DNA of 64,000 bases from a virus (IMGVR_UViG_3300029288_000065:160001-224000); one strand, 5' to 3'. Shown: positions 7,894 to 61,231, numbered from the stretch's first letter. Notes: generated by a model from the sequence alone, not told the origin. Translations and numbers: made by a program.

Positions 7894-8226
7894 CTAAAAT
7901 CCATCTCCAATCAATTCTCTCATATTATGAAATAATAATCTTATTTGTAAATATCTTTCAGTAGTTACTATATGACATATGTTATAAACAACATAATCAA
8001 TATTAAATTCGGCAGGATTTGCAAGATCCCAAGTCATGGTCCTGCATTTTCGTTGGAGAGTAAGAGTCAGATACTGACCAATGATTTCTATTCTACAATA
8101 TTGCATACCTTTTTTATCAGAAATTTGTAGACTTTGTGTATAGTTGGTTATCCACATTTCATCGTCTAATGTTGTCAGACGGTTCATTATTTCTTGTAAA
8201 ATTTTGTCCGTCTCAGATATTTCCAT
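7894..8226 (-). CDS. DP-motif family protein
   Basis: TWDLANPAEF. Confidence 0.65.
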   Translation of the reverse strand: MEISETDKILQEIMNRLTTLDDEMWITNYTQSLQISDKKGMQYCRIEIIGQYLTLTLQRKCRTMTWDLANPAEFNIDYVVYNICHIVTTERYLQIRLLFHNMRELIGDGF

Positions 8227-8488
8227 CTCTTATCCCCAGTTCTTCTTTTATTGCTTTTTGTTGGTTTTTTCTACCAAGGTGGTAGGCGGCTGATAATAGT
8301 GGAGCAAGAGAACATGGAATTAGGTATGTCTGTAAGTTGACATATCCGCCTTTATCTGGTTCTCTGACGGTGATTTCCCACTCATGACCAAGCGGTTTTA
8401 GAGCAAGTTCTCGTGGTACCCAAAATTCGTGAGCGTTACGTAGACCTCTAACTTCCTTTTTGAGTCGTTTCATGGTTATTGTTTTCAT
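8213..8488 (-). CDS. hypothetical protein
   Basis: RBS GGAGG. Confidence 0.6.
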   Translation of the reverse strand: MKTITMKRLKKEVRGLRNAHEFWVPRELALKPLGHEWEITVREPDKGGYVNLQTYLIPCSLAPLLSAAYHLGRKNQQKAIKEELGIRDGNI

Positions 8489-8867
8489 TTTGTCCTCCGA
8501 TGTGAATGTATTTCTTATGGAGTAACCCTGGTGGTGGGGGTATTATCTCACCAGGACACAATTTTATTATCCCTATTCTTTCCCATATTTCTAGCAATGT
8601 CCATCCTAATTCATAAGCGTCATCTGATGCATTGTAGAGATTGGAACTTGGGTAATGAACCATTTTTATCCAGAATATTACATCAAATTCACTGACTATA
8701 AGTTGTCCATTACCTGGGGATATATAATTTTTGGAATAATTATAGAATTGAAACCATATTTCTTGTACGTCACACTTTGGATCGTTTATGTCGAGATTTA
8801 GGTTTGGTGGCTGGTATCTTTCTTGTTCCAAACCGAGTCTCCAGTTTTCTGACATTGGCAGCCTCAA
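8448..8867 (-). CDS. DP-motif / winged-helix-like protein (start uncertain)
   Basis: LNLDINDPKCDVQEIW...LLEIWERIGII. Confidence 0.6.
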   Translation of the reverse strand: MRLPMSENWRLGLEQERYQPPNLNLDINDPKCDVQEIWFQFYNYSKNYISPGNGQLIVSEFDVIFWIKMVHYPSSNLYNASDDAYELGWTLLEIWERIGIIKLCPGEIIPPPPGLLHKKYIHIGGQNENNNHETTQKGS

Positions 8868-9264
8868 ACTCTGGTATATTATCTAGATAAGCGTTTCGAT
8901 CAATAAATGGCAAACATCCACCCATAGTCTCTACGGTATCTGGTTCTGCTACGCATAGTTCTTTGAAGATCTTTTCCCATAGGAATCCTATACCAGTCCA
9001 CCATCGTCTTGTCTTATGTCCTTCTTGTGGGAGTCGTTTTCGTTCTGATTTGAGGAATCTCGCTTGGTTTAGGTGTTCTTCTGTGTTGATGGTCCAGTTT
9101 ACCAGTGCTTCCATGGCGTAATCTGCTTTTTCGTCTGTTGTCAGATGTTCTTTTCGTTCTTTTACTTGGAATGCTTTGTGTGACCAGAATTTCTTGCATT
9201 TCTTACAGTAGGTGTTGTGTCTGAAGGTGATTAGGGTTTTGCATTCTGGGCATGGGATTTCCAT
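8770..9264 (-). CDS. Zn-ribbon protein
   Basis: CPEC...CKKC at N-terminus. Confidence 0.6.
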   Translation of the reverse strand: MEIPCPECKTLITFRHNTYCKKCKKFWSHKAFQVKERKEHLTTDEKADYAMEALVNWTINTEEHLNQARFLKSERKRLPQEGHKTRRWWTGIGFLWEKIFKELCVAEPDTVETMGGCLPFIDRNAYLDNIPEFEAANVRKLETRFGTRKIPATKPKSRHKRSKV

Positions 9265-9401
9265 GATTTTCTCCCGTGTTTTTCACCAGCTAGAAATCCT
9301 GCTTTAAATGCTCTCTTTGATAAATCTGGATAATATCCAGAAAGTTTGGATCGTTCGAAAGATTTTCTCCATGGTGCTTTCTTCATTTCTTCTCCTACAA
9401 A

Positions 9402-9432
9402 AATGGGGCTGGTATTACCTACCAGCCCCATT
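9402..9432 (-). terminator. intrinsic terminator
   Basis: 13-bp stem AATGGGGCTGGTA/TACCAGCCCCATT running into a T tract on the minus strand, just after the stop at 9453. Confidence 0.75.
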
Positions 9433-9452
9433 GGTCCTTGAAGAAGGGTTGC

Positions 9453-10867: not shown

Positions 10868-10874
10868 GGATACC

Positions 10875-11258
10875 ATGGAACCCTCTCAAATAGCATCGTT
10901 GATCACCGAAGACATCCATGATAATAATGGACTTATACTCGAACATAAATGGAAAGATATTAAATATTTGTTGTCAAATTGGAGACAGATACCAGTATTG
11001 GCTGATAGATATGGGAGACCATTATATAATCCTGAACTTATAAATGATAATGATTTTATGACCAATATTGTAGAAATACTCAACAAAGATGAATATTATC
11101 ATGGTACATTTGGTCAAGAACAAAATCTACAACTACTTGCTGATCGTTTGGCAGATGCGAAGAAATATCATAAGCCAGGTCTGATGGGTGCTGGACATTC
11201 TCCAGGTCGTTTGGAACGAAGCGGTTATGAGAAACGTCATCCAGTAGAGCGTGTTTGA
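10875..11258 (+). CDS. hypothetical protein, opposite-strand island
   Basis: TAAGGA RBS, starts MEPSQIASLITED. Confidence 0.7.
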   Translation: MEPSQIASLITEDIHDNNGLILEHKWKDIKYLLSNWRQIPVLADRYGRPLYNPELINDNDFMTNIVEILNKDEYYHGTFGQEQNLQLLADRLADAKKYHKPGLMGAGHSPGRLERSGYEKRHPVERV

Positions 11259-11482: not shown

Positions 11483-11824
11483 CTATGATGACACCGTTCT
11501 GTATGGATCTTCCATTATCATCTTATCAATTACTTCCGAAATATATCTTGGGTTACAATCTGGGTCTGAGAAATCTTTTTCAAAAATAATTTCTCCAGGT
11601 TCTAATACTGGTTGGATAGAAAATTTATCCCTCCTAATAGTAATCCCACTATCAGTTATACTAAGGGAACCAAGGACATAATGGTTTTGTCCATCTTTGA
11701 TAATGAATATATCATGGTTATTGAAATGATTATTCGTATTATGAAACCAGATATATCCTTCCGTAAGTCTGATATGGTCCATAAAATCTCTAAGGATTAC
11801 TCTGGACATTTCCATCTTTTTCAC
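11483..11824 (-). CDS. DP-motif family protein
   Basis: EKDFSDPDCNP. Confidence 0.65.
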   Translation of the reverse strand: MKKMEMSRVILRDFMDHIRLTEGYIWFHNTNNHFNNHDIFIIKDGQNHYVLGSLSITDSGITIRRDKFSIQPVLEPGEIIFEKDFSDPDCNPRYISEVIDKMIMEDPYRTVSS

Positions 11825-12206
11825 CCTCCGACTTAAATTGCTCTAGAATAATATCGATAGATTTGGGGTCATTGAGATTGGTTAATGGCAATTCTTTGGA
11901 CCATCCAGATGGCATTGTGTGACTTTCAATCCATTTTTGGTAAGAAACTTCTCCATTTATATGGACGACTACAATTATATCATAATAACAGATATTAAAT
12001 CCTATTGCTGGCCCAAGAGTTATACCACCTGGTCTTTCATATTCAACGTTTAAGAAGACTTCTCGCGTATTAACTTTTTCTATTACTTGTGTTACTAATT
12101 TTACTGCTAATGATGCTATTTCTTCTCCAAAAGATTTTCTGATCTCTACGTAACGGAGTTGGTTTCTTTTAAGCATATTTGGTCTTGCTGGTGATTTGTT
12201 CCACAT
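11790..12206 (-). CDS. DP-motif family protein
   Basis: TNLNDPKSIDII; GGAGG RBS. Confidence 0.65.
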   Translation of the reverse strand: MWNKSPARPNMLKRNQLRYVEIRKSFGEEIASLAVKLVTQVIEKVNTREVFLNVEYERPGGITLGPAIGFNICYYDIIVVVHINGEVSYQKWIESHTMPSGWSKELPLTNLNDPKSIDIILEQFKSEGEKDGNVQSNP

Positions 12207-15118: not shown

Positions 15119-15805
15119 TTATTTTTGATTATAACTTACATTTAACTCTGATAACAGTGTTTCCCAGTTCGAACTGAAATATTTAATCAAAGTCAACAAG
15201 TGGTCAAGAGTTTTTCCTTTCGGATCTGCTAAGTCCGTTGGGATTATATGATCTGGATTACGGTGATTCTGTAACCTAAAGACGACATTCCCATCAACAA
15301 TCAGGATGAAGAAAGGCATAATAGTTGGACTTACGATAAGGTAAGGAACTTCTGAGTTATTATAATCCCGATAAGTGTATCGAGATACTTTGTAACCTTG
15401 TTCTTTCAAGAAGAATTTGATTACATTTAGGGTATCTGGGTTTTCCTTTAGTTGTTTCTTCTTTAGGATTTGTTTTCGGTCATCTTCGATATGTTCTATA
15501 ATCTTGTCACATAATCCGATATGTCCGTTGGTGTAGATTCTATCATGCCAGATATCTCTAAACCGTGCTGTTTGGATAGCCATATATAAGTTTGTTTCCG
15601 TTTCCGTAAAGATCACGAAATACTTCTCATTCTTATACTTTATAGTGAAGATATACTTGGTTTCAGTCCAAGTAGCACCTGGATATTTTGGTTCAGTAAT
15701 TACTCTAAAATCAGTAGTTTGAAACGATTTGCTGTCGTCCAGCCAAGTTTTAAATTCCTGCAATTTTCTCAGCTGTTCAGGATCTTCTTTTATGACGCCA
15801 CCCAT
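15119..15805 (-). CDS. DP-motif family protein (two-domain)
   Basis: PTDLADPKG; AGGAG RBS before MGGVIK. Confidence 0.6.
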   Translation of the reverse strand: MGGVIKEDPEQLRKLQEFKTWLDDSKSFQTTDFRVITEPKYPGATWTETKYIFTIKYKNEKYFVIFTETETNLYMAIQTARFRDIWHDRIYTNGHIGLCDKIIEHIEDDRKQILKKKQLKENPDTLNVIKFFLKEQGYKVSRYTYRDYNNSEVPYLIVSPTIMPFFILIVDGNVVFRLQNHRNPDHIIPTDLADPKGKTLDHLLTLIKYFSSNWETLLSELNVSYNQK

Positions 15806-15999
15806 TCTCTGATCTCCTGTATGCTTTTCTTTGAACCCATGACAGTAAATCTCCAAACACCATTCCCAAGGTGCGTCGGATTTAATACCTTCACTCTGTA
15901 CCTGGGCCATCCCTGCACATCCATGATATTATCCTGTATTTCTCGTTTTCTGTTTTCAGTGTCGAATGTCCATTTCTGTTTCCAGGAGATTCTTTTCAT
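15790..15999 (-). CDS. hypothetical protein
   Basis: AGGAG RBS, ATGA overlap. Confidence 0.55.
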   Translation of the reverse strand: MKRISWKQKWTFDTENRKREIQDNIMDVQGWPRYRVKVLNPTHLGNGVWRFTVMGSKKSIQEIREWVAS

Positions 16000-16496
16000 G
16001 GTGCTTCTCCTATCGCGAACATCTTCAAGAGTTTTCTGTTTTCTTCTGGAGATGGAGAATTCTTCCCAGCTTCATGAAGTGCTGTCCAAACTTGAGCATA
16101 AATTCCATTGCTCTTCCAAGCTTCCAGGATTGACATCAAACCATCAATTGAAATCTCATTGGCTGATTCAGCGGTCATTTGGGCATCAAAGAAAGCGCAT
16201 CCGAATGGTGCGTTTTTGTGAATCTTGCAACTCATATCATCACAGAAGAATCTACAACTCCCCTTTGCGTTTCTGGCAGGGACAAGAGTTGGTATCTTTA
16301 CAATTTCTCCATCCATTACTACTGTTGCTCCTGGACTAGCCAGTAGATTTTCCATCGCCCATTCCATAATCGGCTTCTTCCCGGCCATTCTCGGAAGATC
16401 ATTGGGAATAAGGTAGCCTGGGATGAAGACGCAATTCAGGATGTCATTCGTACTCGCGCTGCTTGTTCTAGTGTATCCGAATTCAGTCCTGGCCAT
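15996..16496 (-). CDS. YkgJ/UPF0153-like Cys-cluster protein
   Basis: GSCRFF...CKIH..AP.GC..F. Confidence 0.55.
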   Translation of the reverse strand: MARTEFGYTRTSSASTNDILNCVFIPGYLIPNDLPRMAGKKPIMEWAMENLLASPGATVVMDGEIVKIPTLVPARNAKGSCRFFCDDMSCKIHKNAPFGCAFFDAQMTAESANEISIDGLMSILEAWKSNGIYAQVWTALHEAGKNSPSPEENRKLLKMFAIGEAP

Positions 16497-16771
16497 GTTA
16501 CCCCCAATTCTTTGAGTCTGTCGTAGTTGACTTTATAAAATCCAGGTATATTACTCTCAAATGTATGCAATATTCTGGATTTCAACCACACTAATATAAT
16601 GTTGTCGACATCTTGATCCAATTCTTCAAAATCATCATAATGGGATTTATATTTAAAAACCCAATAATTTTCAAATGATGTTTGGGTGAACCAAGTGCTG
16701 AAAGCGATATATTCCCAATATTCTTCAAAGATCTTGAGTAAATCACAGTTTGGATCGTGTATGTCTACCAT
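16436..16771 (-). CDS. DP-motif / winged-helix-like protein
   Basis: MVDIHDPNCDLLKIF...VWLKSRIL. Confidence 0.6.
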   Translation of the reverse strand: MVDIHDPNCDLLKIFEEYWEYIAFSTWFTQTSFENYWVFKYKSHYDDFEELDQDVDNIILVWLKSRILHTFESNIPGFYKVNYDRLKELGVTWPGLNSDTLEQAARVRMTS

Positions 16772-17121
16772 CGGCCTAACCTCGTTAGAAATTTCTTGTG
16801 GCTCATAATGTCTTTTGTAATATATCTCTTCATATTCTTAATTGAATTGGGATCTGAGAGTGGAAATAGATATGACCTATTTCCACACCATAATTTAAAA
16901 TTATCATCTTGGAAACATATATCCCAGTAGATTTCAGTATTACTCTTACAAAATCCTATCGATAATGTTGTTGGTCTTTGCATGAATGATAATTTATCGA
17001 CAAAAAAGAGCTTTGACTCAACTTCCCAGAATTTAAATTTCTTTTGACGATAATGTTTTTCCATGTCCTTCCTCAATTCATCCAATATCTTGTCTTCTGT
17101 TTTCATTTGATCGTACCACAT
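16765..17121 (-). CDS. DP-motif family protein
   Basis: FPLSDPNSI. Confidence 0.6.
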   Translation of the reverse strand: MWYDQMKTEDKILDELRKDMEKHYRQKKFKFWEVESKLFFVDKLSFMQRPTTLSIGFCKSNTEIYWDICFQDDNFKLWCGNRSYLFPLSDPNSIKNMKRYITKDIMSHKKFLTRLGRW

Positions 17122-17642
17122 TTCCCAAGGAATTGTTGGACACTTGTGTTCAACTCTTTAAAGAATTTCTCATGTTCAGTCTTTTTCTGGTATGCCAGAT
17201 CAATAAGTCCAACTATCTTCTCTGGATCGAAGCATGGGTCTGATATAAGACATGTGTCTATATTCCAGTCGATTGATCCTTCGTCATCAGTGAAGATATT
17301 AATCTCTATATTAATAATATTATCATCATTTGGGTTTAAAAAGATGCGCATATCACTATCTCCATTATCTTTATGCCCAATATCTATGGAATAATTATTC
17401 CAATCTACATCATATTTAATTTTACGATTCTTGCAAATCATAACTATCTTAGAAAGAATCAGTTTCTTTACATCAGAATATTTAACAGCTTTATTTATGT
17501 GTAGTTGTTCATATTTCTTGTTCAACTCATCATTGTGTTTTAAAAGGGCTTCTGCAAGTTCTTTCATAGCTGTTGGTGAATATGGAATAGCAACATGTAC
17601 TCTCTTATTGTAACATAATTTTAAATCTACTGGTTTTCCCAA
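17103..17642 (-). CDS. DP-motif family protein
   Basis: CLISDPCFDPEKI. Confidence 0.6.
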   Translation of the reverse strand: MGKPVDLKLCYNKRVHVAIPYSPTAMKELAEALLKHNDELNKKYEQLHINKAVKYSDVKKLILSKIVMICKNRKIKYDVDWNNYSIDIGHKDNGDSDMRIFLNPNDDNIINIEINIFTDDEGSIDWNIDTCLISDPCFDPEKIVGLIDLAYQKKTEHEKFFKELNTSVQQFLGKCGTIK

Positions 17643-48025: not shown

Positions 48026-48088
48026 TGTTCGGAAGATCCTTTCTCTGTGTTTTATCTTTTGAGACTTTGGACATAATTCGGTGCGACA

Positions 48089-48601: not shown

Positions 48602-48622
48602 TGGAACCTCCTCTTTTCAGTA

Positions 48623-49322: not shown

Positions 49323-49590
49323 TGTTTTCTCGATTCAGGAATTTCCTAACCTCTCTGACCACACTATGTGGGTCAAATGATGGATCAGCAATATCAAATT
49401 CTCTAACCCGCATCTTCAAACGTCGTTTCCTATATTTCTTAAATGCTACCTTGAGAGATGTTTTCGAAAGAGAAATCCGTATATTTCTCTTTTTGGATAC
49501 TGTTCCAATTGTAAGACTACCGGGGGTAAGAAAACGTGAAGTATCAAGAAATTCGCTTGTGAAGAAAAGTAACAACTTATCCACCATCAT
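49306..49590 (-). CDS. DP-motif protein, tandem paralog
   Basis: EFDIADPSFDPHSV. Confidence 0.7.
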   Translation of the reverse strand: MMVDKLLLFFTSEFLDTSRFLTPGSLTIGTVSKKRNIRISLSKTSLKVAFKKYRKRRLKMRVREFDIADPSFDPHSVVREVRKFLNRENNGQPT

Positions 49591-49868
49591 TTTAGGGTCA
49601 CAATCTTCTTGTCACCGGCCAACTCCTGAATCCTCAGGAAAAAGTTGGGGTGGGGCCTAAACTCCCAACGATTCTTCTCGTGATATTCTTTCGTTTCTTT
49701 GATAAATTCCTCTGCGGCAGAAATATATCTATCATATTCCTTGTGTGTCAATTTCCCAACCACTTTTGCATAAAAATCAGCACATCCAGCGCCATATCTG
49801 GTGTCACATTCCACTGGGTCCCATACTTCTTGGAATGTGTCTTCAACCTGTTTTCTGGTTACTTGCAT
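49587..49868 (-). CDS. hypothetical protein
   Basis: AGGAGG RBS. Confidence 0.6.
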   Translation of the reverse strand: MQVTRKQVEDTFQEVWDPVECDTRYGAGCADFYAKVVGKLTHKEYDRYISAAEEFIKETKEYHEKNRWEFRPHPNFFLRIQELAGDKKIVTLK

Positions 49869-50655
49869 CGAAGTCCTCCTTCAATGCTTGTGCCATCATG
49901 CAGAAGTTATCCCTATCTGCTGTGTTTAGTTCTTTTGTTTCAATATAAGGGGACGCAAACTTTTTTGTAATCCTAAGATTGTTCTTCTCAAAACAACCCT
50001 GGACAGGATAGAATTTGTCAACGCCATCGAACAATAGTTGCCCGTATCTTTGGGTCATAGTGATGAAATTGATGTAGAACCACATCTCGGATCCACTATT
50101 TGGGTCTGCCAAACCTTCTTTACTGGAATCTATCTTGCCGCCTTCTTTTAGACCAACGATAGTGATGGTTCCAGATGCAACATAATTTGGTTGGCAGAAT
50201 CTGAGTCCTTTCTCACTTCTGGTAATTGGTTCTCCAATTTCCGAGAAATTATATGGTTCATGCGGTATATTCTTGACTTTTTTGGGTCTTTCTTCGAATT
50301 TGGTAATAACCGGCGTCTCCGCGATTATTGGTTTGAGTGCTTGGGGGATTAATTTGTTTGGGATTTCCGAATTTGGGAGAGTAGTCCTTTCAAGTTCATA
50401 ACCACCAAATTTCGTAATCTTATAGAAAGACAATTCTTTCGAAATACTATTATTCCAATGATAAAGTCTTATATGAATCTGCGCTCTGAAATGATTCTTT
50501 CGCTTTATAATAACGTAATTTTCTTTTAATTCACATTCGCATCCTTCGAAATCTGGTTCTTCTTTGATACATTTTTGGAATACTTTTAAAAGGTCTTCGG
50601 CTTTGGCCTGAACTTTTGCATCAGTCACTTCTTTTCCTCCTGGAGGAATGCACAT
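49843..50655 (-). CDS. DP-motif protein, paralog of 39599/40730
   Basis: EGLADPNSGSEMWFYI. Confidence 0.6.
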   Translation of the reverse strand: MCIPPGGKEVTDAKVQAKAEDLLKVFQKCIKEEPDFEGCECELKENYVIIKRKNHFRAQIHIRLYHWNNSISKELSFYKITKFGGYELERTTLPNSEIPNKLIPQALKPIIAETPVITKFEERPKKVKNIPHEPYNFSEIGEPITRSEKGLRFCQPNYVASGTITIVGLKEGGKIDSSKEGLADPNSGSEMWFYINFITMTQRYGQLLFDGVDKFYPVQGCFEKNNLRITKKFASPYIETKELNTADRDNFCMMAQALKEDFDASNQKTG

Positions 50656-51056
50656 GTATCACCAGCAATAACCTTATCAATTAACATCTTTCGTGTAGAC
50701 GAATCTGGGATGGATGAATAATATTTCTTATAGAGACACAAAAGATCCTCATAACTAATTTCCTGTAACAGAGGTGTTAGCAACCCAACCAATGCTCCTC
50801 TTGCGAATATTTCACCGACTGTTTTTCTGAGATTATCCAGAGATTTGGGATCATTAAGATCAATTTCAATTTTATCTGCATATTTTATTCTTGATCCAGT
50901 TACGAAGATTTTGGCGTCTTTTAATTCCAATGATAAAGATGATCCCAATTTATCAGAAATACCAGCTGCTGGTATTTCTCCATAACCTGTAGTAAAATCA
51001 CCCAGTCTTGCATTTCTGATTATTTCACAAAGAAGTTCTCGTTCCAACTTGGACAT
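50625..51056 (-). CDS. DP-motif family protein
   Basis: EIDLNDPKSLDNL. Confidence 0.65.
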   Translation of the reverse strand: MSKLERELLCEIIRNARLGDFTTGYGEIPAAGISDKLGSSLSLELKDAKIFVTGSRIKYADKIEIDLNDPKSLDNLRKTVGEIFARGALVGLLTPLLQEISYEDLLCLYKKYYSSIPDSSTRKMLIDKVIAGDTCAFLQEEKK

Positions 51057-51427
51057 TATTCTTCCCTTTTCAGGGCATTAAAATGTGACAATATCTTTTT
51101 TAGAATTCTATCAAACGACGTTGGATCAGCAAGTTCGAACCTCTCACCAAAACGCCATCCCATACATTGTGTAACTTTTGGGACCGAAATATTATCATCT
51201 CCCCAAGTAACCCTCTCCATATTATCCCAAAACCATAATCTAACATTATATTCGTCATCTGGATCAATCAACGCACATTCCATTTTATTAATACAAAAAC
51301 GGAAACAGTCATCTTTTGTCTCTAGAAAATCGCAGGTCAATAATTGCTTTTCTATTTCGTCCTTTAACCATATTGCCAGTTCATGAAAAACAGACTTGGT
51401 AAGTGGGCTTAATGTTCGTATGGTCAT
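51056..51427 (-). CDS. DP-motif family protein
   Basis: RFELADPTSFDRI. Confidence 0.65.
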   Translation of the reverse strand: MTIRTLSPLTKSVFHELAIWLKDEIEKQLLTCDFLETKDDCFRFCINKMECALIDPDDEYNVRLWFWDNMERVTWGDDNISVPKVTQCMGWRFGERFELADPTSFDRILKKILSHFNALKREE

Positions 51428-52086
51428 AATATCTCCTTTAACTTCTCTTCAAAGAACTCGACATTATGAGCAGTGAAAGGAGCATTCTTCCAATAGAGTT
51501 TCCCATCTTTAATATTGAGAACTACAGATTTCTTGTGGGTACCACCACCAGGCTTGACAGTCATTAGTCTGGCCATGAAATTCATCTTAGGATTGGTCTT
51601 TGGATCAGCCAGTTCCTTATTTCCTCTGGTAATCACACGAGCCGAAAGCGTTAGAATCAGAGTCATTGGGAATTTTTCATACTTGATGTTGATTAGTTCG
51701 TTGACGACTTGATATTTGATCTTTTTGAATGTAACAATATATCCGTCTTCAGTTTCTTTATATTGGTGATTAAATATTCTTTCCCCGTTCTGCCATACCC
51801 AAGTATAAGCAGAATCACGGATTATTCCATACAAATCTGCTGGAACGTCATCCGAGACATGTATATCATAAACTTTGGTATAATCAAGATAAGTTGGATT
51901 ATTCCATTTTCTCCTATAATAGAGATTTTTGGAAATTATTTTTACTTCAATAATATCATTGCTACCTCCAACGAATTCACCGGTTAGAATACTTGTCAAT
52001 TTCACTCTAATTTCGCTTAAATCATATTCATTTATTGGCTTATCAAATCCGAGTTTTTTCATATCTCTCAAGTCGATCGTGATCAT
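51424..52086 (-). CDS. ELANP-subtype protein, paralog of 31841-32395
   Basis: KELADPKTNPKMNFMAR. Confidence 0.65.
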   Translation of the reverse strand: MITIDLRDMKKLGFDKPINEYDLSEIRVKLTSILTGEFVGGSNDIIEVKIISKNLYYRRKWNNPTYLDYTKVYDIHVSDDVPADLYGIIRDSAYTWVWQNGERIFNHQYKETEDGYIVTFKKIKYQVVNELINIKYEKFPMTLILTLSARVITRGNKELADPKTNPKMNFMARLMTVKPGGGTHKKSVVLNIKDGKLYWKNAPFTAHNVEFFEEKLKEIL

Positions 52087-52482: not shown

Positions 52483-53730
52483 TTACTCGTCCTTGTCCTT
52501 ACCCCACGCGGTCTTGGACAGGAGATCCTGCAGTTGAGGACGCTCAAGCAGCCGGTCCAAGAATTTCTTCTTGCCACCGGGGGAGCCGCCAGCCTTACCC
52601 AACAGCTTGGCCAACTTCGGATTGGAGATTGCTGCCGCCCGGACGTGATCGTCCACGCCCGCTCCGCCACCAGACACCAAAGCCTTGCAGAACGCAACCA
52701 CAAGGTCCTTGTCCGGATTCTGCTTGCACATCCATTCCGCAAAATCCAGAGCGACTTCGCCAGGCTTGTCCTCTTCGATCTTGGGCTTGATGAAGCCCAC
52801 GAGGCCCCACATCAGACCTGTCATCTGATTTCGGTTCAGCTTGCCAAGCTGGCCTTCCTTGGCCTTGACACCGGTCTGAACCAGCTCGCGAGGCTTGACA
52901 GGGCAGGAATACCGGCTATACGACATCGCCAGTTCTCGACCGATCAGACCAGCGATGACTTCGATTCGGGCTTCCTCGCTATAGCTTCCTTCCTTGCAGG
53001 CTTCCTCCACCCTTACGATTGCTTCCCACGACCGCCTTGACGGCTGGATACCGAAGCCAAGTTCGCCGTCCACGTCACCATCAAGGTGCTTGACGTTCTG
53101 CGTGGCGAACTCGATTACCTGGGATGCCCGACCTTCGTGCTTCATACCCATGTAATCGACCCATTCATCCAGGGTCGTCTCACCGTCACTCAGAGTGACG
53201 TGACAGAATCGATTCAGGAAGGCCGGATCGGTGAATCCGTTCACCATGTAGCCTTCCATGAAATTTCCCGCGCAGACCACGGACCAGCCAGGCGGGAGGG
53301 TATACTGACCGACCTTGCGGTCCAGGATCAGCTGGAAGATTGCCTGTAGCACGTCGTCCTGGGCTCGATTGACTTCGTCCAGGAAGAGGATTCCCTGCTT
53401 GAGGCGGGGTTGCATTTGGTTCCAATATGCTTCCTTCTTTTCGTCGCCAAGTTCGTTATACTTGGTGATGAATTCCTTGAATTCGATATCGGCGATGGGC
53501 ATGTCTGCCGGTGGGAGGTAGATGGTTCGTCCGTTTTGTCGGTCAGGGAGGCCACGGATGTCGCTGGCTTCAAGCTGCGAGCATCGCATGTCGATCATTC
53601 CCATTTCGTCTTCCATTGAGGTCTGTTGGACCACGCTGGATTTTCCGATGCCTCGGTGTCCCCAGATGAACAGCGTCACATTGGACTTTTTGCAAATCCT
53701 GATAGTTTCCTTCAAAGTCTTGATCTTCAT
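52483..53730 (-). CDS. MoxR-like AAA+ ATPase (DUF2201-associated type)
   Basis: WGHRGIGKS, D.RGLP, LFLDEVNRA, QLILDR, AGN, DPAFLNRF, PSRRSW. Confidence 0.9.
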   Translation of the reverse strand: MKIKTLKETIRICKKSNVTLFIWGHRGIGKSSVVQQTSMEDEMGMIDMRCSQLEASDIRGLPDRQNGRTIYLPPADMPIADIEFKEFITKYNELGDEKKEAYWNQMQPRLKQGILFLDEVNRAQDDVLQAIFQLILDRKVGQYTLPPGWSVVCAGNFMEGYMVNGFTDPAFLNRFCHVTLSDGETTLDEWVDYMGMKHEGRASQVIEFATQNVKHLDGDVDGELGFGIQPSRRSWEAIVRVEEACKEGSYSEEARIEVIAGLIGRELAMSYSRYSCPVKPRELVQTGVKAKEGQLGKLNRNQMTGLMWGLVGFIKPKIEEDKPGEVALDFAEWMCKQNPDKDLVVAFCKALVSGGGAGVDDHVRAAAISNPKLAKLLGKAGGSPGGKKKFLDRLLERPQLQDLLSKTAWGKDKDE

Positions 53731-54816: not shown

Positions 54817-55485
54817 TTAGGCGCTCTGCGCATTTTCCACGTCCAATTTCTGGGTACTCTCGACAAACTGTTTGAGAACAACTTCACCAATTGCGTCCAT
54901 ATTTGGATTGGCGATGTCAATATCAGTGGTCATCTTTTCCAATTGTTTTTCTACATCGGTTGCCACAACCTGGACATATTTGTCATAGACTCTGAAGATC
55001 TCTGATTTCATTCTACTTTCTAATTCCCATTTAATTTTAGCCTTTAACTCAATCAATACAGCATCCTTAGCTTCCTGAATAACAGTGGCTATATTGCTTT
55101 CACTCATAATTTCTTCCAGTTTTGTGGCCACTACTAATCTTGCTTTATCAGTTACATATTTGTTGATTGTTGTCTCTCGACCGTTACAATGGTCGACTCT
55201 CCATTGTCCCCATGATCTATCAAATCCAAGAACTTCAGCTATACTAGCTTCAAGTCGTTCTCTCACCATTTTGTCAACTTGACCAATAAAATGTGCTGCG
55301 GATTCGATTATACGCTTGTTGATTTCCTTTCCTGCTGTTTTCATAAGATTTTCTCTTGATTCGTTTGCTGCTTCTGCTAGGACTTTGACTTGTTCCCGAT
55401 CACTGTTTTTTGTTTCCAGTGCATAGATTCGATCTGTTAGTGCCCGTATTTCACTTTCAAGTTCTGCGATTGTCTTTCTTGGCAT
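54817..55485 (-). CDS. coiled-coil protein with C-terminal DP motif
   Basis: DIDIANPNMD. Confidence 0.6.
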   Translation of the reverse strand: MPRKTIAELESEIRALTDRIYALETKNSDREQVKVLAEAANESRENLMKTAGKEINKRIIESAAHFIGQVDKMVRERLEASIAEVLGFDRSWGQWRVDHCNGRETTINKYVTDKARLVVATKLEEIMSESNIATVIQEAKDAVLIELKAKIKWELESRMKSEIFRVYDKYVQVVATDVEKQLEKMTTDIDIANPNMDAIGEVVLKQFVESTQKLDVENAQSA

Positions 55486-55487
55486 TA

Positions 55488-55871
55488 TTAAACTTTCTTG
55501 TATTTGGCAAAGAGACTAACATCGAATACACCAGGTGAGTCAGAAGTACCACCTGTCAATATTTCCTTCACGCATTCAAAGAACTCTTTGTTATTAGATG
55601 GTACGACCTTGGTATGTTGCTGAACCTTTTCTTTATTTTTCCAATAATAATCGATCTCATCTGTATCCAAATTCAATAGGGTACTTGGATAATATGTGAT
55701 TGCTACTTTCCCAAAGGTGAATCGTCCTGTACTTAGTTTGTTGGCTGTCATCCATAGGTCAGCCCGTACTTCTACGGTTTTGTCGGGGTTGGCCAGTTCT
55801 TCACTTACCAGGAATAGTTTGAATTTGGTTATTGAACCTGGGATAAGGAAGGTTCCGATTTGTTTTCGCAC
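55488..55871 (-). CDS. ELANP-subtype protein
   Basis: EELANPDKTVEVRADLW. Confidence 0.6.
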   Translation of the reverse strand: MRKQIGTFLIPGSITKFKLFLVSEELANPDKTVEVRADLWMTANKLSTGRFTFGKVAITYYPSTLLNLDTDEIDYYWKNKEKVQQHTKVVPSNNKEFFECVKEILTGGTSDSPGVFDVSLFAKYKKV

Positions 55872-56254
55872 ATGTCTCTCTTTATTTGGTTTACCAATTT
55901 TCTGAATATGGCAGCGTGGAGTATATTTAATTCAAATGATTTGTGTGTAAAACATTGCAACTTTTGAATCGATAAATTTCCATTCATCATCTCTGGCGTG
56001 GATCCAGGATTATATGCGAGCCAATATTGGTCACTACCATCAACAGCAATATAGAAAGTATTATTTGATAAAACGACAAAAAACACGAATAAACATTTCG
56101 TACCTTTTTTACAGATTGATTCTCTTGTTAATGTGGAGGAAGGCACTTCTCCTTCATAAGCTGGTTCCAGACCAAATATCCCCATATATTGAATGTTGAC
56201 AATACTTGCCATAGAGATTGGGTGACCCAGATCTACTTTTTGGAATTTGCACAT
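55829..56254 (-). CDS. hypothetical protein (DLGHP variant)
   Basis: tiling. Confidence 0.55.
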   Translation of the reverse strand: MCKFQKVDLGHPISMASIVNIQYMGIFGLEPAYEGEVPSSTLTRESICKKGTKCLFVFFVVLSNNTFYIAVDGSDQYWLAYNPGSTPEMMNGNLSIQKLQCFTHKSFELNILHAAIFRKLVNQIKRDMCENKSEPSLSQVQ

Positions 56255-56652
56255 TTTTCTTGCATCAACCTTTCTTCAAGCATACGAGTCCAACAATTCC
56301 TATAACTACTCTTATTGTCACGCATAATCATACAAATGGTGTCAATCATCTTTGGGTCACACAGGAATATTTCCATTAGATGTGTTTTCCATTCCCATCT
56401 ACCACAATAATTTAAATATATTCTTACTCTATCATCACCATATTCATATGATACAACTGTCTTACCTATTTGAGCGATATTGAAACCTTTACCATGAAAG
56501 GTATTTGCATTAAAACGGAGATCTTGCCCAGTACGCTTACGAATATCATTATATAATGCCAGTGCGAAAACAGCCATTTCCTCGTTTGAATCTTTCAATA
56601 TTCTATCAAATTTGTCTTTAACTAGATGATGTTCTCTACCAAGAGAACGCAT
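56233..56652 (-). CDS. DP-motif family protein
   Basis: EIFLCDPKMIDTI; start probably MRSLG. Confidence 0.55.
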   Translation of the reverse strand: MRSLGREHHLVKDKFDRILKDSNEEMAVFALALYNDIRKRTGQDLRFNANTFHGKGFNIAQIGKTVVSYEYGDDRVRIYLNYCGRWEWKTHLMEIFLCDPKMIDTICMIMRDNKSSYRNCWTRMLEERLMQEKCANSKK

Positions 56653-57497
56653 CAGAACATCCCAGAGGGTTCCTGAGGACCAGGACCACCCTCTTTCGGA
56701 GGACCCTTCTTCCACCAATCCGGGTCTTCGTGCTTATCTTTCCAGAAATCAGCATCATCTACGTCCTGTTCCTGATCCATCCCAAGAACAGGAGTCAGAG
56801 TTGCATCCGGTTCCTGAACGATCCTACTAACCACAAAATCAATCATTTTCTCAATATTCTCGCACTTAAGACGATCCTGGAAGCGGAAACCACGCTTCTC
56901 ACCATGTTCCTTCTCAATGGTGATGAATTGCTTGAGTTCCAGGTCGATCTTTACTGGATGCATATTCTCGACAACATTGAAGAATCCACCAGTTTTCTTG
57001 CATGTAGTCACGTAGACTTGACCGTAATATCCTTTACCCTCGACCATGAAGACCTGGACTCGGGTAATGAAGTTCTTTCCAGATTTATTGAGATCTGGTC
57101 GGAATTCATCTACGATATCTCCGAAGAACATAATCTTTGTTTTCTTGCCTTCTTCTAGTGCTTGTTGGCCGATGGTGGCTGCCAAATCTACGTTTTTGAA
57201 TTCCTGGACAAGGAATTCTTTGCCGCTTTGGCAGATCAGGACATTCTTTGTACCACATTCTCCGATGATTGGTTCCAGGGGAGTACCTTTTATAACTTCG
57301 ATATTCATTGGGATTAGGCCTTGTTGTGTGATATTATCTCGGAGGCTCTGTTTTGCTTCTTCTGGGACTTGCTGTTGTTGTTCCATTGTTTTGATCATAA
57401 GTTCTGCTAGTGCGTTTGTGAATTGTGTCCATTCTTCATTTGTGAGACTTACGAGTGTTGCTTCACCGCTCGGCAGATCAACTTTGGACTTTTCCAC
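56652..57497 (-). CDS. hypothetical protein
   Basis: AAGGAG RBS, GTG start; acidic/Trp C-terminal tail. Confidence 0.65.
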   Translation of the reverse strand: MEKSKVDLPSGEATLVSLTNEEWTQFTNALAELMIKTMEQQQQVPEEAKQSLRDNITQQGLIPMNIEVIKGTPLEPIIGECGTKNVLICQSGKEFLVQEFKNVDLAATIGQQALEEGKKTKIMFFGDIVDEFRPDLNKSGKNFITRVQVFMVEGKGYYGQVYVTTCKKTGGFFNVVENMHPVKIDLELKQFITIEKEHGEKRGFRFQDRLKCENIEKMIDFVVSRIVQEPDATLTPVLGMDQEQDVDDADFWKDKHEDPDWWKKGPPKEGGPGPQEPSGMF

Positions 57498-57777
57498 GTT
57501 TTCTCCTTTGTTTAATCTTGTTTGCTATCTTGATTCCTTCTGGTGTTAAATTCCACCAGGCAAATCCATTTACACCACCGTGTGGTTTTACCCATCCTAT
57601 CAACTTCCAGGATTGTAATATCTTTAGTGCAGTTTCGGTATCAGCATACAACTTTATAGATGATGTTAAAAGGTCGAAACTCATATCGAAAGGCATCCAG
57701 ACTTGCCATCGTTTTATAAATTTCGTGAATACTTTCTTTGGGTCGTAATTTGGATTATTTATGTCAAGTTCTAGCAC
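57478..57777 (-). CDS. DP-motif + winged-helix protein (tandem array 1/5)
   Basis: LDINNPNYDPKKVF...SWKLIGWVK...LTPEG. Confidence 0.7.
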   Translation of the reverse strand: MLELDINNPNYDPKKVFTKFIKRWQVWMPFDMSFDLLTSSIKLYADTETALKILQSWKLIGWVKPHGGVNGFAWWNLTPEGIKIANKIKQRRKRGKVQS

Positions 57778-58112
57778 TTTTTAAGTACCTTAATCCCTTG
57801 GTCGGTAAGCATAAAATTACCATTTTTCTTTTCTTCTATCCATTTGAAGTCTTTCCATGAATGAAATATTAATATGATGTTTGCAATATTATTAACTTCA
57901 AATTTTTTACTTTCTATTAATATTAATGTGTCCATAACACCAATTTCATAAATACGCAGCTTTTTCTTACTTAATGTATGGTGACAATTGAACTTCATTT
58001 CGAAAAATTTGCGGAATATTTTCTCTGGGTCATGATCTGGGTTTTCTATTTCTAGTTCCAAGGTTAACTCCTGTATGACCAGAGAAAAGAAATTCTCGTA
58101 ATGGCATCCCAT
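57771..58112 (-). CDS. DP-motif + winged-helix protein (2/5)
   Basis: LEIENPDHDPEKIF...SWKDFKWIE...LTDQG. Confidence 0.7.
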   Translation of the reverse strand: MGCHYENFFSLVIQELTLELEIENPDHDPEKIFRKFFEMKFNCHHTLSKKKLRIYEIGVMDTLILIESKKFEVNNIANIILIFHSWKDFKWIEEKKNGNFMLTDQGIKVLKKC

Positions 58113-58485
58113 ATCGGTTTATCTGTCGTTTTCTGATTTTCTCTTGTTTATCCTTCTTTTTCCATTCTCTGGCTACTTTGATTCCTTCTGGTGTTGCCCT
58201 ATAGAAACCTGATTTTACTGTTTTGTTTATATTCATGAAATGGGTTTCGCTTTTAATCCACCCGCATTGTTCCCAGCTTTTCAACAATAATTCGTACGTA
58301 TGGTCAACTGCAATTATATCTTGGACTTTGTCTTTTCGGACTCCCCAGAATGTTGCTACGTCTTCAACAATAAAACCATGTTTAGAATGTATGGAGAAAA
58401 AATGTTGTTTCTTGTCATAATTAAAATAGAATTTACCCCATATTTCCTCTGGGTTATGTTCTGGATTGTTTATGTCTAAATTCAA
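58030..58485 (-). CDS. DP-motif + winged-helix protein (3/5)
   Basis: LDINNPEHNPEEIW...SWEQCGWIK...ATPEG. Confidence 0.7.
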   Translation of the reverse strand: MNLDINNPEHNPEEIWGKFYFNYDKKQHFFSIHSKHGFIVEDVATFWGVRKDKVQDIIAVDHTYELLLKSWEQCGWIKSETHFMNINKTVKSGFYRATPEGIKVAREWKKKDKQEKIRKRQINRYGMPLREFLFSGHTGVNLGTRNRKPRS

Positions 58486-58742
58486 AGTTTTTCTCCTTCT
58501 TGCGTAATAATATATCCACTATTTTTCTTTCTTATCCAACCAAGTGAGACCCATGAATCAACCAAATAATATTTGTTTTGATCAAAGATGGTGTATATAT
58601 TCCCAATTGTATATGCTATCCAACATTCGACATTACAATCCCAGAATATTCGTCCATTAGTATGTTTATCATACCACCAATCACGAAAAGAAATAAATAC
58701 CTCTTTTGGATTATGCTCTGGATTAGAAATATCAATAATCAT
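58482..58742 (-). CDS. DP-motif + winged-helix protein (4/5)
   Basis: IDISNPEHNPKEVF...SWVSLGWIR...ITQEG. Confidence 0.7.
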   Translation of the reverse strand: MIIDISNPEHNPKEVFISFRDWWYDKHTNGRIFWDCNVECWIAYTIGNIYTIFDQNKYYLVDSWVSLGWIRKKNSGYIITQEGEKL

Positions 58743-59037
58743 TTTTCAGCATTCCCTCTCTAGTTATTGAATAACAATTATCCCATTCTTTAACCCAACC
58801 AAAAGAAACCCATGATTGTACAATAGCCTCACCAAGTTCCCAAGATGCGCCCAAGCATTTTGTATGAAACCAAAATACAATGGAAGAAATACTAAATGAA
58901 TTTTCGACCCTATCACCTCTCCAATCCAGAAATGATTTAAAAACCTCCTCTGGATCATGACGAGGATCATTTATATCAATCACCAGATCAATTGTTTTGT
59001 TTTGTGACTGCATCTTTCCAAGCTCCGGCAGCTCCAA
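58732..59037 (-). CDS. DP-motif + winged-helix protein (5/5)
   Basis: IDINDPRHDPEEVF...SWVSFGWVK...ITREG. Confidence 0.7.
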   Translation of the reverse strand: MELPELGKMQSQNKTIDLVIDINDPRHDPEEVFKSFLDWRGDRVENSFSISSIVFWFHTKCLGASWELGEAIVQSWVSFGWVKEWDNCYSITREGMLKNDY

Positions 59038-59644
59038 TTAACAGACGATTAATATAACCAGGCCACAATTCAACGACCTTCTCAGGAGAAAGAGAACTAC
59101 TATACTTCATCCCGGTAGAAGCAATAGAAATAATCATCTGCTGCAAGAATTCCATCGTGTCAAAATTGGTCATGAAAGCAGAATTTAAATGACCAAGAAA
59201 TTCATTTATAACCCTTGGTACATCACCAATCTCACTCTTAACAATCTTATCAGTAAAAGAATCAACCAATACCTTAACCTCTTGCGGAAGAGAATCATAA
59301 GTCTTCTGACATTGCTTAATAAAATCATCGTCAACTACTATATTCGTGACATCAATATTTGACATCACCTTCTCTGCAAAACCTTGTTGGCAGATTGACA
59401 TATATTCTTTATCAACTTTGAGATAGGTGAAGAGCTGCTCGGTAAGTTCTCCTCGTCTGATCAGTGGGACTTGCATTGCATCTTTACATCTTTGGACTTG
59501 TTCATCCGTCATTGGTTCCAGGGTCCGTATGTCCTTGCTACTGCATTTTCGCATTTCTTGGAGAAATGCGTCAAATTCCTGTTCTGTGAGGACGCATACT
59601 GTGATTTCTCCAACTTCTGGGATTATATGTTCATGCTTGGTCAT
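58988..59644 (-). CDS. hypothetical protein, N-terminus similar to 56652-57497
   Basis: GEITVCVLTEQEFDAF versus GEATLVSLTNEEWTQF. Confidence 0.6.
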   Translation of the reverse strand: MTKHEHIIPEVGEITVCVLTEQEFDAFLQEMRKCSSKDIRTLEPMTDEQVQRCKDAMQVPLIRRGELTEQLFTYLKVDKEYMSICQQGFAEKVMSNIDVTNIVVDDDFIKQCQKTYDSLPQEVKVLVDSFTDKIVKSEIGDVPRVINEFLGHLNSAFMTNFDTMEFLQQMIISIASTGMKYSSSLSPEKVVELWPGYINRLLIGAAGAWKDAVTKQNN

Positions 59645-59969
59645 GGAGTTTCCTTTCGATGGCCTGAAAGACTTCATCCAGGTTCTTGGCTGAATTTATT
59701 CGTTTTACTATCTTAATTTCCTGTGTATCTCTTTCCAGGATGAATTTCTTGTTTTTTATGTCTACTGTTAAGCTTGGTACGAAATCCCTATTGATGACCA
59801 TATCAGCACATGCTGTGACAAACCAGATATCAGCCGTTATCTTGACGGATGTGTTTGGGTTTGATAATTCTTTCCCTCGTGGTGTACTTATATAGAGTAT
59901 GAAGTTGGATATCGATCCTTTCAACCATGAAAGGTCGAACATGTTTGTTATTCCAAGATCAACTCTCAT
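59631..59969 (-). CDS. ELANP-subtype protein
   Basis: KELSNPNTSVKITADIW. Confidence 0.6.
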   Translation of the reverse strand: MRVDLGITNMFDLSWLKGSISNFILYISTPRGKELSNPNTSVKITADIWFVTACADMVINRDFVPSLTVDIKNKKFILERDTQEIKIVKRINSAKNLDEVFQAIERKLHDQA

Positions 59970-60119
59970 GGTCGTCCCTCAGAAGGAGTGGGTTTAGTCC
60001 TGTCATTTGAATAAAATTCTCAACCCACAGTTCTTCTTCGTCTGGTGGTTTTAGTTTTGGTACCTTTTTGGGTTTCTTCTTTAATTCTTTTTTCAGGATG
60101 TTTACTATGTCTTTGTTTT

Positions 60120-60503
60120 TCATGATTTCCTTTCACAGTAGTTGGATCTGGCGTCCAGGAGTAATCTCTGATACTTTAGAGCTGTCTGTATTAATTCTAT
60201 TAGCCATTTGTAAGCGTTTGGGTTGTCCAACTCTTCTTCAATTTCCCAGATTTCATAATCACCACACATATTTAGCCAGAATTGGATTCTTGATTTACCA
60301 TCTTTATCCAGACCGTAGTTGGTACCGTATTGGTAAATGCAAATAAAACAACATGCATCATTTCTTCCATTACATTTATGGGATAACCTATATGCATGTC
60401 CATCTTTATCATCACGATAAATTCGATATTGTATTCCATTTTCCTTTAGTAGGTTTAATATATAATCTCTATGGAGTTTGAATTCATTTTTGGTCAGGAT
60501 CAT
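60120..60503 (-). CDS. DP-motif family protein
   Basis: EELDNPNAYKWL. Confidence 0.6.
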   Translation of the reverse strand: MILTKNEFKLHRDYILNLLKENGIQYRIYRDDKDGHAYRLSHKCNGRNDACCFICIYQYGTNYGLDKDGKSRIQFWLNMCGDYEIWEIEEELDNPNAYKWLIELIQTALKYQRLLLDARSNYCERKS

Positions 60504-60512
60504 GAATGCACC

Positions 60513-60893
60513 TTACAAGTAAACATGTTTTTTATCGCGGAGAGCGTTCTGGTCTATTCTCCGTGGTTCTACTAATATCTTGAGTTTATAAATCTTACTA
60601 CCATGCCAAATTTTTCTTAGAAAACCATATTTTATCCAGAGGTGAACAAAAGGAACGAGAATATTTTCTTTTACTTCCATCATCTTTACCGCCCAATAAC
60701 CAGCATTGAACTCCTGTTTTTCACTCAATATTGACGGATCATTCAACAAATAAAATTTCAGCATCCAATCCAATAAAGAAATCTGATCAATAATTTCATT
60801 CTTCTTATTCCCAATAAAGATTAGGTGATATAGGAATTCAGGATCACATTTGGGGTCTGCTAGTTCCCATGAGATTCCAAGTCCATTTTTCAT
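60513..60893 (-). CDS. DP-motif + winged-helix-like protein
   Basis: WELADPKCDPEFL...LWIKYGFLRK. Confidence 0.6.
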   Translation of the reverse strand: MKNGLGISWELADPKCDPEFLYHLIFIGNKKNEIIDQISLLDWMLKFYLLNDPSILSEKQEFNAGYWAVKMMEVKENILVPFVHLWIKYGFLRKIWHGSKIYKLKILVEPRRIDQNALRDKKHVYL

Positions 60894-61231
60894 TTTATTG
60901 CCTTAATTATCCACGTTTTGATCTTCTCAAAACTCTTGGGATCAGACATATCAATCGTGAACTCAGGACCGCTAACACAGGAAAAGAAAGCAATAAGATC
61001 ACCATTTTCATTAATCATAATCTTAATATCTCTTGGGGCATCCAACCCAAGAGCAGACGGAGTAATCCTGACAGTTGGTAATCCTCGTATAGATCCTGGT
61101 ATTGAGTGTAGCATCGGATGTTCTACTTTAATTGATCTGAATATTTCCCAAAGGATATTAGCTTTCATTGCGTACGATTCTCTATATTCGTCATGCTGAC
61201 GTTGAAATTCTTCGTTCGTCAGTTTTGGCAT
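60890..61231 (-). CDS. DP-motif family protein
   Basis: TIDMSDPKSFEKI. Confidence 0.65.
   Translation of the reverse strand: MPKLTNEEFQRQHDEYRESYAMKANILWEIFRSIKVEHPMLHSIPGSIRGLPTVRITPSALGLDAPRDIKIMINENGDLIAFFSCVSGPEFTIDMSDPKSFEKIKTWIIKAIK

Follow-up and report, generated by a model that had tools for sequence, protein, structure and literature searches.

An Asp/Asn-Pro motif recurs in many small proteins of an uncultured T4-like phage and may act as a portable docking element

A short Asp/Asn-Pro motif in the window

The window analysed here is a stretch of 64,000 nucleotides, bases 160001-224000 of the 234-kb linear virus record IMGVR_UViG_3300029288_000065 (genome label G000). It encodes a short motif centred on an Asp-Pro or Asn-Pro pair that recurs from gene to gene: 39 of the 117 genes of the window are carriers, and 68 carriers were curated genome-wide in G000, with approximately 5 weaker ones besides. 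The motif core reads [DE]-[LI]-x-[DN]-P-x-[FC]-[DE]-P and often moves together with the next helix as a 22-residue module. The full unit is longer, hydrophobic-[DE]-[LI]-x-[DN]-P-x-[FCS]-[DF]-P, and an amphipathic helix usually comes next. A preliminary description, made from the window sequence, had listed 40 motif strings at about one per protein. All 40 were found, each in frame within a minus-strand open reading frame (ORF), and a second copy was seen in none of the carriers. The coordinates given as motif positions proved to be the stop-codon ends of the ORFs, and one string, ELCDP in the ORF at 41553-42626, fits the regular expression but not the profile and is a doubtful instance.

Comparison with shuffled proteins revealed an approximately 10-fold excess. 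G000 proteins of up to 250 residues contain 47 instances of the pattern [DE][LIFM]x[DN]P, against about 4.5-4.6 expected (maximum of 10 in 50 shuffles), and proteins above 250 residues contain 11, against 6.1 expected. In a de novo gapped-word search, PxxDP, DPxF and LxDP ranked top once zinc-finger words were set aside, and a profile derived from part of the carrier set gave 38 matches of at least 10 bits versus 0.4 in shuffled frames.

When the Asp/Asn (Asx) position was left unscored, 60 matches in G000 contained 58 Asp or Asn and no Ser or Thr, and 65 matches in the other genomes contained 44 Asp or Asn and 7 Ser or Thr; in the background, Ser-Pro and Thr-Pro are as common as Asp-Pro and Asn-Pro. 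An acid is present at motif position -1 or +2 in 67 of the 68 carriers, with position +2 being Asn in roughly one third and position -1 non-acidic in roughly one quarter. The synonymous codon variation pointed out earlier is borne out: codons follow background usage, with the information residing in codon positions 1-2 and little in position 3. Among six ortholog pairs, a small sample, motif identity was 84% (21/25 residues) compared with 60% elsewhere (380/635). Background synonymous codon use and higher ortholog identity together indicate that selection acts on the protein.

One ortholog pair from related genomes, G005 141482 and G004 267275 (L116:9312-9815 region), has the motif intact mid-protein in one member; in the other, the mid-protein motif is broken and an intact copy lies near the C-terminus, possibly a single case of motif turnover.

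Carrier classes and predicted folds

The 68 carriers fall into three classes (43 C-type, 17 N-type and 7 M-type), the class of most being set by sequence pattern. In C-type carriers the motif comes between a last strand and a helix; it mostly stands 20-45 residues short of the end of a domain some 100 residues long, and some of these domains are fused to zinc ribbons or coiled coils. N-type carriers place it at around residue 7 and form a family that is homologous beyond the motif, with a hypervariable middle and the motif as its best-conserved part. In M-type carriers the motif is internal and followed by alternating hydrophobic, predicted strand-like sequence, with no helix. The preliminary description had noted three placements (C-terminal after a beta-rich domain, N-terminal before a winged helix, mid-protein before a strand). 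Carriers and candidate partners of the window are as follows.

7894-8226 (-), C-type carrier, alpha-beta5-alpha, CyaY/YjbR-like as modelled; motif 8014-8028
8448-8855 (-), N-type carrier, winged-helix family; motif 8778-8792
11483-11815 (-), C-type carrier; motif 11561-11575
11790-12206 (-), C-type carrier; motif 11865-11879
15119-15910 (-), 263-residue protein with a C-type domain at its end; motif 15221-15235
16436-16771 (-), N-type carrier; motif 16751-16765, kept in ortholog P0007
16765-17121 (-), C-type carrier; motif 16849-16863
17103-17567 (-), C-type carrier, start uncertain; motif 17235-17249
20062-20394 (-), C-type carrier; motif 20128-20142
22047-22985 (-), 312-residue protein, C-type domain and coiled-coil tail; motif 22284-22298; paralog at G000 230365
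23896-24249 (-), M-type carrier, predicted strand after the motif; motif 24127-24141
30682-31341 (-), zinc ribbon fused to a C-type domain; motif 30919-30933, kept in a 42%-identical ortholog
31841-32395 (-), M-type carrier, paralog of 51424-52086; motif 32024-32038
34392-34703 (-), N-type carrier; motif 34665-34679; ortholog P0006
36803-37138 (-), C-type carrier; motif 36941-36955
37632-37985 (-), C-type carrier; motif 37683-37697
37982-38386 (-), C-type carrier, Glu-Pro variant; motif 38126-38140
41553-42626 (-), 357-residue protein, doubtful member; regular-expression match 41865-41879, low profile score
42647-43042 (-), C-type carrier; motif 42770-42784
46339-46707 (-), C-type carrier; motif 46429-46443
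46700-48025 (-), metallopeptidase-VWA protein (DUF2201), residues of the MIDAS (an adhesion site that depends on metal ions) intact; candidate partner
48089-48601 (-), C-type carrier; motif 48128-48142
48623-48988 (-), tandem C-type carrier 1 of 3; motif 48683-48697
48972-49322 (-), tandem C-type carrier 2 of 3; motif 49044-49058
49306-49590 (-), tandem C-type carrier 3 of 3; motif 49381-49395
49843-50655 (-), 270-residue protein, weak M-type instance; motif 50101-50115
50625-51056 (-), C-type carrier, helical tail; motif 50847-50861
51056-51427 (-), C-type carrier, Atlas model DUF5655-like; motif 51122-51136
51424-52086 (-), M-type carrier; motif 51601-51615
52483-53730 (-), MoxR-type AAA+ ATPase; candidate partner
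54817-55485 (-), 222-residue, mostly helical protein; motif near the C-terminus, 54904-54918; Asp-Pro retained at the equivalent place in the G004 ortholog
55488-55871 (-), M-type carrier; motif 55785-55799
56233-56652 (-), C-type carrier; motif 56353-56367
57478-57777 (-), tandem N-type winged-helix paralog 1 of 5; motif at 57751, 15 nt
57771-58112 (-), tandem N-type winged-helix paralog 2 of 5; motif at 58038, 15 nt
58030-58485 (-), tandem N-type winged-helix paralog 3 of 5; motif at 58462, 15 nt
58482-58742 (-), tandem N-type winged-helix paralog 4 of 5, modelled; motif at 58719, 15 nt
58732-59013 (-), tandem N-type winged-helix paralog 5 of 5; motif at 58963, 15 nt
59631-59969 (-), M-type carrier; motif 59856-59870, unchanged in a 61% ortholog
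60120-60503 (-), C-type carrier; motif 60219-60233
60513-60893 (-), N-type carrier; motif 60852-60866; ortholog P0008
60890-61231 (-), C-type carrier; motif 60938-60952

The C-type model (7894-8226) was obtained with a predicted local distance difference test score (pLDDT) of 84 and a predicted template modelling score (pTM) of 0.72, and consists of a helix, five strands, the motif loop and a helix. Its best matches are CyaY/frataxin (Z 9.1, root mean square deviation 3.4 over 88 residues), with further matches to YjbR (Z 7.6), the C-terminal domain of MotA (6.4-6.6), AcrIIA11 (6.3) and PsiB (6.0). Comparison with DUF5655 clusters gave TM scores of 0.64-0.67, and a second C-type member, available as an Atlas model, likewise resembles DUF5655. 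Both models contain the helix, antiparallel five-stranded meander and helix that define the CyaY/YjbR-like fold. Sequence identity in the structural alignments to CyaY/YjbR-type folds is 6-11%, and Pfam and PHROG profiles of the CyaY, YjbR and DUF5655 families gave no match for the five C-type members scanned. Upstream of the motif there is nearly no detectable sequence likeness among C-type members (area under the curve 0.65-0.79 against non-carriers, 0.51-0.71 against shuffles), and a single fold for all of them is therefore read from the pattern.

The N-type model (58482-58742; pLDDT 89.5, pTM 0.82) folds as a winged helix: three or four helices lead into a wing of two strands, and one more helix closes the domain; it combines the helical bundle and beta-hairpin wing typical of this fold, and the top Foldseek rows are winged helices, at E values of 0.1 or above. 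The motif lies in the N-terminal coil and not in the sheet. N-type carriers are mostly acidic (median isoelectric point 5.5), and DNA binding is therefore not implied. When N- and C-type profiles were compared, the alignment was limited to the 22 motif-plus-helix columns (probability 61%, E 8e-5), and masking of the motif abolished the match (0.06%). The motif core is found in coil in both models. Two unrelated modelled folds with profiles that match only across the motif support a portable motif; as modelled, it is present on at least two unrelated folds, with a third class defined by sequence.

A single homologous domain behind all carriers, one of two outcomes that the preliminary description had named as fatal to its proposal, is at odds with these two unrelated and confident models; the other, a motif frequency no higher than in composition-matched controls, is at odds with the approximately 10-fold excess over shuffles. 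The dissimilarity it ascribed to the carriers holds between classes rather than among all of them, the N-type members being paralogous beyond the motif and the C-type members sharing one architecture. Likewise, a motif grafted onto some 40 unrelated effectors is sound as regards portability but overstated in number, as approximately 63% of carriers share one architecture. Searches of Pfam, PHROG, PADLOC and PDB sequences returned nothing significant for the carriers. A GTG with its own ribosome-binding site lies inside a seeming fusion of a C-type domain with DUF1257 (G000 224104), which may represent two in-frame products.

Related phages and copied virion pieces

G000 encodes a gp23-type capsid protein (phrog_138, E 8e-82) as well as a contractile sheath. 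Capsid identity to the closest named phages is at most 40%, and IMG/VR relatives with 73-87% capsid identity have complete genomes of 320-410 kb. These capsid distances and genome sizes indicate that G000 represents part of the genome of an uncultured T4-like jumbo phage. Landfill and groundwater metagenomes from four studies contain near-identical DNA. Seven related genomes (G001, G002, G003, G004, G005, G030 and G031) were compared with G000, eight in total.

Related phages show the motif strongly in two cases, moderately or weakly in two, and lack it in three. Observed versus expected counts in small proteins are 34/8.9 for G004, 22/7.6 for G001, 16/5.6 for G031, 11/5.7 for G005, 10/5.7 for G002, 3/5.7 for G003 and 6/6.7 for G030. 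The position-specific profile detects 8 good carriers in G005 and none in the small proteins of G002, G003 or G030; clear C-type carriers are present in five partial genomes. The G031 excess derives in part from one unrelated helical-repeat family with a shared leader, and this genome is therefore counted as weak only. That undescribed family (L327-L344; genome positions 31288, 47655-49400, 58007, 78449 and 297535-298990) comprises at least 10 recent paralogs; each has a leader of 35 residues, nearly identical among them, and then tandem helical repeats of 24 residues.

G001 additionally shows 25 instances, against 1.6 expected, of a variant Asx-Pro-x-aromatic-x-Pro. Its further contexts include around 20 M-like proteins, with strand-like alternating hydrophobic sequence and no helix after the motif, and the N-terminus of four proteins of 240-330 residues, a fourth context. 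In an unrooted tree of 29 core proteins, motif-positive and motif-negative genomes interleave (G001 with G002; G030 with G004 and G005). The contig of a related strain skips 384 bases (window 60126-60511) and with them exactly one carrier, 60120-60503; such a loss would be expected if the genes are dispensable and turn over fast. The carriers are fast-turnover accessory genes in some lineages of the phage clade.

Beyond the clade, four unrelated large phages used as controls gave no motif match. The motif profile retrieved from 1.84 billion representatives only repeat proteins (ankyrin, WD40, LVIVD) that sum weak matches. Searches of a 5.8-billion set yielded only the phage's own proteins and a few close orthologs, such searches being weak for a motif this short. 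A degenerate DNA pattern of the motif gave none in viral contigs and ten chance or off-frame matches in genomes. In G002, which lacks the Asp-Pro motif, W-[YFH]-S occurs in 23 small proteins against 4.4 expected. These are orphans (L150-L168; e.g. 52461-72590 and 337464-345267) in which the string is often followed by x-x-I, and it is possibly an alternative tag.

Several small proteins of the clade start with a copy of a piece from the phage's own virion proteins (L003:16870-17256 (+) in G000; G001 123856, 100745, 154349, 96379 and 292897; G002 297137; G004 292960; G030 86817 and 141957). The motif-rich genomes hold seven of these (five capsid, one sheath, one portal), M-like and C-type carriers among them. 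Four of the seven contain the motif by its strict definition, against a background of 11% (p 0.004), and six of seven by a broader definition that was drawn up with these proteins in view (p 1e-5). According to an alignment with a Krischvirus capsid, the most-copied piece is the equivalent of the Gol region of T4-type capsids; it occurs in small proteins of G000, G001, G002 and G004, three of the four with an Asp-Pro or Asn-Pro motif. Motif-negative genomes hold virion-piece copies without the motif, hence the bait does not need the motif everywhere. We regard these small proteins as candidate immune decoys. The presence of the motif on four to six of the seven points to counter-defence adaptors, and the fact that capsid epitopes are repeatedly joined to domains bearing the motif suggests decoy adaptors directed at capsid-sensing immunity.

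Clues to the host are diverse. The ClpS protein of G004 is closest to Gemmatales and Opitutales, the Ycf46-like ATPase to Armatimonadota and cyanobacteria (42-45% identity), and one capsid match lies inside an archaeal metagenome-assembled genome that is probably misbinned. The phage-encoded ClpS adaptor is located at L128:1827-2156 (+) in G004, is 41-49% identical to the Gemmatales/Opitutales proteins and is also found in G001, G002 and G005. Elsewhere in the window, the product of 3430-4557 (-) joins a LigD 3'-phosphoesterase domain with a DNA polymerase X-type region, and that of 18088-20004 (-) is an NAD-dependent DNA ligase. Dispersed genes encode a Ycf46-like AAA+ ATPase (35216-36766, -), DUF2997 (62225-62419, -) and DUF1257 (L009:10104-10799, -). 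Directly before the window, L008:5853-17681 (-) encodes two huge proteins of 1786 and 2140 residues; neither has a homolog in five related genomes, and the larger has no PHROG match.

Proposed docking, alternatives and known systems

We favour, with modest confidence, the view that the Asp/Asn-Pro string is a portable docking motif through which carriers bring varied clients to one hub. Each carrier would be an adaptor with two faces. Its variable surface, formed by the fold body, by a fused domain or by a copied capsid or sheath piece, would bind a different client, probably a host defence or regulatory protein; the constant motif would bind a hub shared by all carriers, where the client would be sequestered, remodelled or degraded. 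As would be expected of a docking motif, the string recurs above chance in non-homologous proteins and is more conserved than its surroundings in the small sample of six ortholog pairs. Of the short linear motif with a single partner that was originally proposed, the enrichment and the unrelated folds sustain the portable motif itself; that it binds one partner we infer. A more elaborate version is less probable: an F-box-like adaptor library in a bacterium, in which a fifth of the phage genes would be interchangeable adaptors or decoys, some capsid-baited, that bring many host immune sensors to one effector via the motif, with sister lineages using different motifs to the same end.

A number of observations weigh against docking, and several of these would be explained by a structural signature with no common partner, an alternative that we consider possible but less likely. 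Here, one diverged CyaY/YjbR-like family expanded in some lineages, and the motif is a conserved strand-turn-helix junction (an Asx-Pro turn with a helix cap), part of a 22-residue piece that was shuffled by recombination onto the winged helix and other proteins and kept for good folding. The alignments give 43 of the 68 carriers one and the same architecture, in which the motif takes up a single structural position, the loop ahead of the last helix, and the C-type upstream regions are slightly more alike than non-carriers. With one C-type and one N-type member modelled, the fold of the others is read from sequence pattern. The second Asp-Pro is a textbook helix cap, similar strings commonly end strands in repeat proteins such as WD40 and LVIVD, and degenerate versions of the motif occur in some orthologs and paralogs, close homologs included. 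Furthermore, no gene co-occurs convincingly with the motif across the eight genomes, and the association with virion pieces involves seven proteins and, in its wider form, a post hoc definition. However, the winged-helix model offers no sheet to end, yet the motif is the best-conserved part of that family; M-type and G001-type carriers have no helix after the motif; Ser and Thr, usual residues of helix caps, hardly occur at the first Asx; and a purely structural role leaves the link to copied capsid pieces unexplained.

It is unlikely that the motif is a virion packaging tag comparable to the T4 capsid-targeting sequence, with the carriers being internal head proteins injected with the DNA. 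The phage does have a T4-like capsid, and T4 internal proteins are diverse defence proteins that share just a targeting sequence (PMC3012670). The motif is, however, mostly C-terminal or internal (51 of 68 carriers) as opposed to an extreme N-terminal leader, around 70 packaged species would be many, and a separate packaging-like N-terminal leader is found in the clade on other proteins. This second leader, roughly I-A-x-L-I-T-[DE]-D-P-D-V-[LF]-x-E, looks like a capsid-targeting leader with a prohead-protease site at its end, and is present at window 10875-11258 (+), at G000 26485-26796 and 98703, in at least 14 G001 proteins, and also in G002, G004 and G005.

A chemical site, either self-cleavage at the Asp-Pro/Asn-Pro bond or a metal or modification site, is improbable. 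Such self-cleavage is known in other proteins, the Pro is invariant and preceded almost exclusively by Asp or Asn, and the nearly universal acid at -1 or +2 could be counted in its favour. But the outcome of cleavage would differ between classes, with a few residues lost in N-type, the core helix lost in C-type and the protein split in M-type carriers, and no conserved catalytic or further metal ligands are present outside the motif. That the peptide is a mere read-through of a DNA element, such as a promoter, operator or recombination site, is very improbable and largely refuted by the synonymous variation: although C-type motifs lie 60-220 nt before the stop and N-type motifs just after the start, near gene boundaries, and single genes are gained and lost, profile matches fall in the coding frame with off-frame matches at chance level, third codon positions follow background, and there is no shared upstream DNA word.

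If the motif docks, the nature of the hub can be narrowed to some extent. The preliminary description had named a phage AAA+/VWA machine among the possible partners. The VWA protein of the window has an intact MIDAS, and its gene is separated from the MoxR gene by a stretch that includes eight carriers. All five motif-bearing genomes encode the pair, and the motif-negative G030 lacks it, but it is also present in the motif-negative G002 and G003, so that gene content lends it no support as hub. As to the suggestion that the MIDAS would suit an Asp ligand, nearly all carriers have an acid at -1 or +2, but neither acidic position is invariant. A complex prediction for the VWA protein (46703-48025) with an N-type carrier gave no answer (score 0.00), and is not evidence either way. 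Ycf46, also put forward, fares no better: Ycf46-like ATPases occur in all three motif-negative genomes, and were not found in the motif-positive G004 and G005. We rejected an S24-like peptidase, which is encoded in exactly the three motif-richest genomes but also in six other records without a motif match, and ClpS is not discriminating, as it occurs in G001, G004 and G005 but also in the motif-negative G002.

That no phage gene co-varies convincingly with the motif in eight genomes modestly favours a host hub, and the patchy spread across the tree fits a requirement set by the host; a host protein is therefore given the largest share, at about an even chance. G000 is incomplete, with 100 kb or more absent from the contig, and a phage partner may be encoded there; a phage protein other than the MoxR-VWA pair is a lesser possibility. 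The MoxR-VWA pair itself is rather unlikely, and motif-to-motif binding or some other arrangement equally so.

Most jumbo-phage genes are small orphans that offer no handle for study. Here, one peptide links approximately 70 of them, including a third of the window's genes, to a single question, namely what binds the motif. Finding the partner could expose a hub for host takeover or counter-defence and give dozens of orphans a function class. If docking is correct, the carriers would make up a modular adaptor system, so far undescribed, that serves host takeover or counter-defence; if the structural alternative is correct, they still represent an undescribed and very large radiation of CyaY-like and winged-helix orphans.

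Among known systems, the closest is the T4 capsid-targeting sequence, the only conserved part of the diverse internal defence proteins IPI, IPII and IPIII (PMC3012670). It shares with the present case a constant short peptide on diverse, fast-evolving small counter-defence proteins of a T4-like phage. It is, however, a leader at the N-terminus, which directs packaging and is removed, whereas the motif described here is position-independent, usually internal, spread over some 70 genes, and without sequence likeness to it. The Gol peptide of T4 gp23 is sensed via Lit and EF-Tu and, in E. coli, switches on the Lit protease (PMC12926258). The same region of the major capsid protein is copied here, but as a stand-alone copy fused to accessory domains. 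To our knowledge, no Lit-like sensor is known for the host.

Client recognition by MoxR-VWA (MIDAS) systems is exemplified by CbbQO, which binds Asp82 of Rubisco, one client carboxylate (PMC4660213), and a MoxR-peptidase-VWA pair in group 2.2 jumbo phages has a proposed role in virion assembly (PMC7824862). The phage pair with its intact MIDAS, the eight carriers between its genes and the near-universal motif acid resemble the CbbQO arrangement; the lack of an invariant acidic motif position and the occurrence of the pair in genomes without the motif set it apart. With CyaY/frataxin, YjbR/DUF5655 and the T4 MotA C-terminal fold, the C-type model has the alpha-beta5-alpha arrangement in common; this is a likeness of fold only, with approximately 11% identity, and the motif is not known from these proteins. 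The N-type model shares its topology with winged helices of the STIV F93, PadR and Sso10a types, but differs in its hypervariable middle and N-terminal motif arm, with no match at E below 0.1.

Literature, family and structure searches found no description of the Asp-Pro motif, and no report of a position-independent linear motif over unrelated folds at this scale in a phage. Position-independent linear motifs on unrelated folds are a hallmark of eukaryotic viruses. F-box, SOCS-box and poxvirus ankyrin-F-box proteins combine a variable client-binding domain with a constant short docking element over dozens of genes. The adaptor logic would be the same in the present case; there is no relation in sequence or fold, and the motif described here is shorter and not bound to one terminus.

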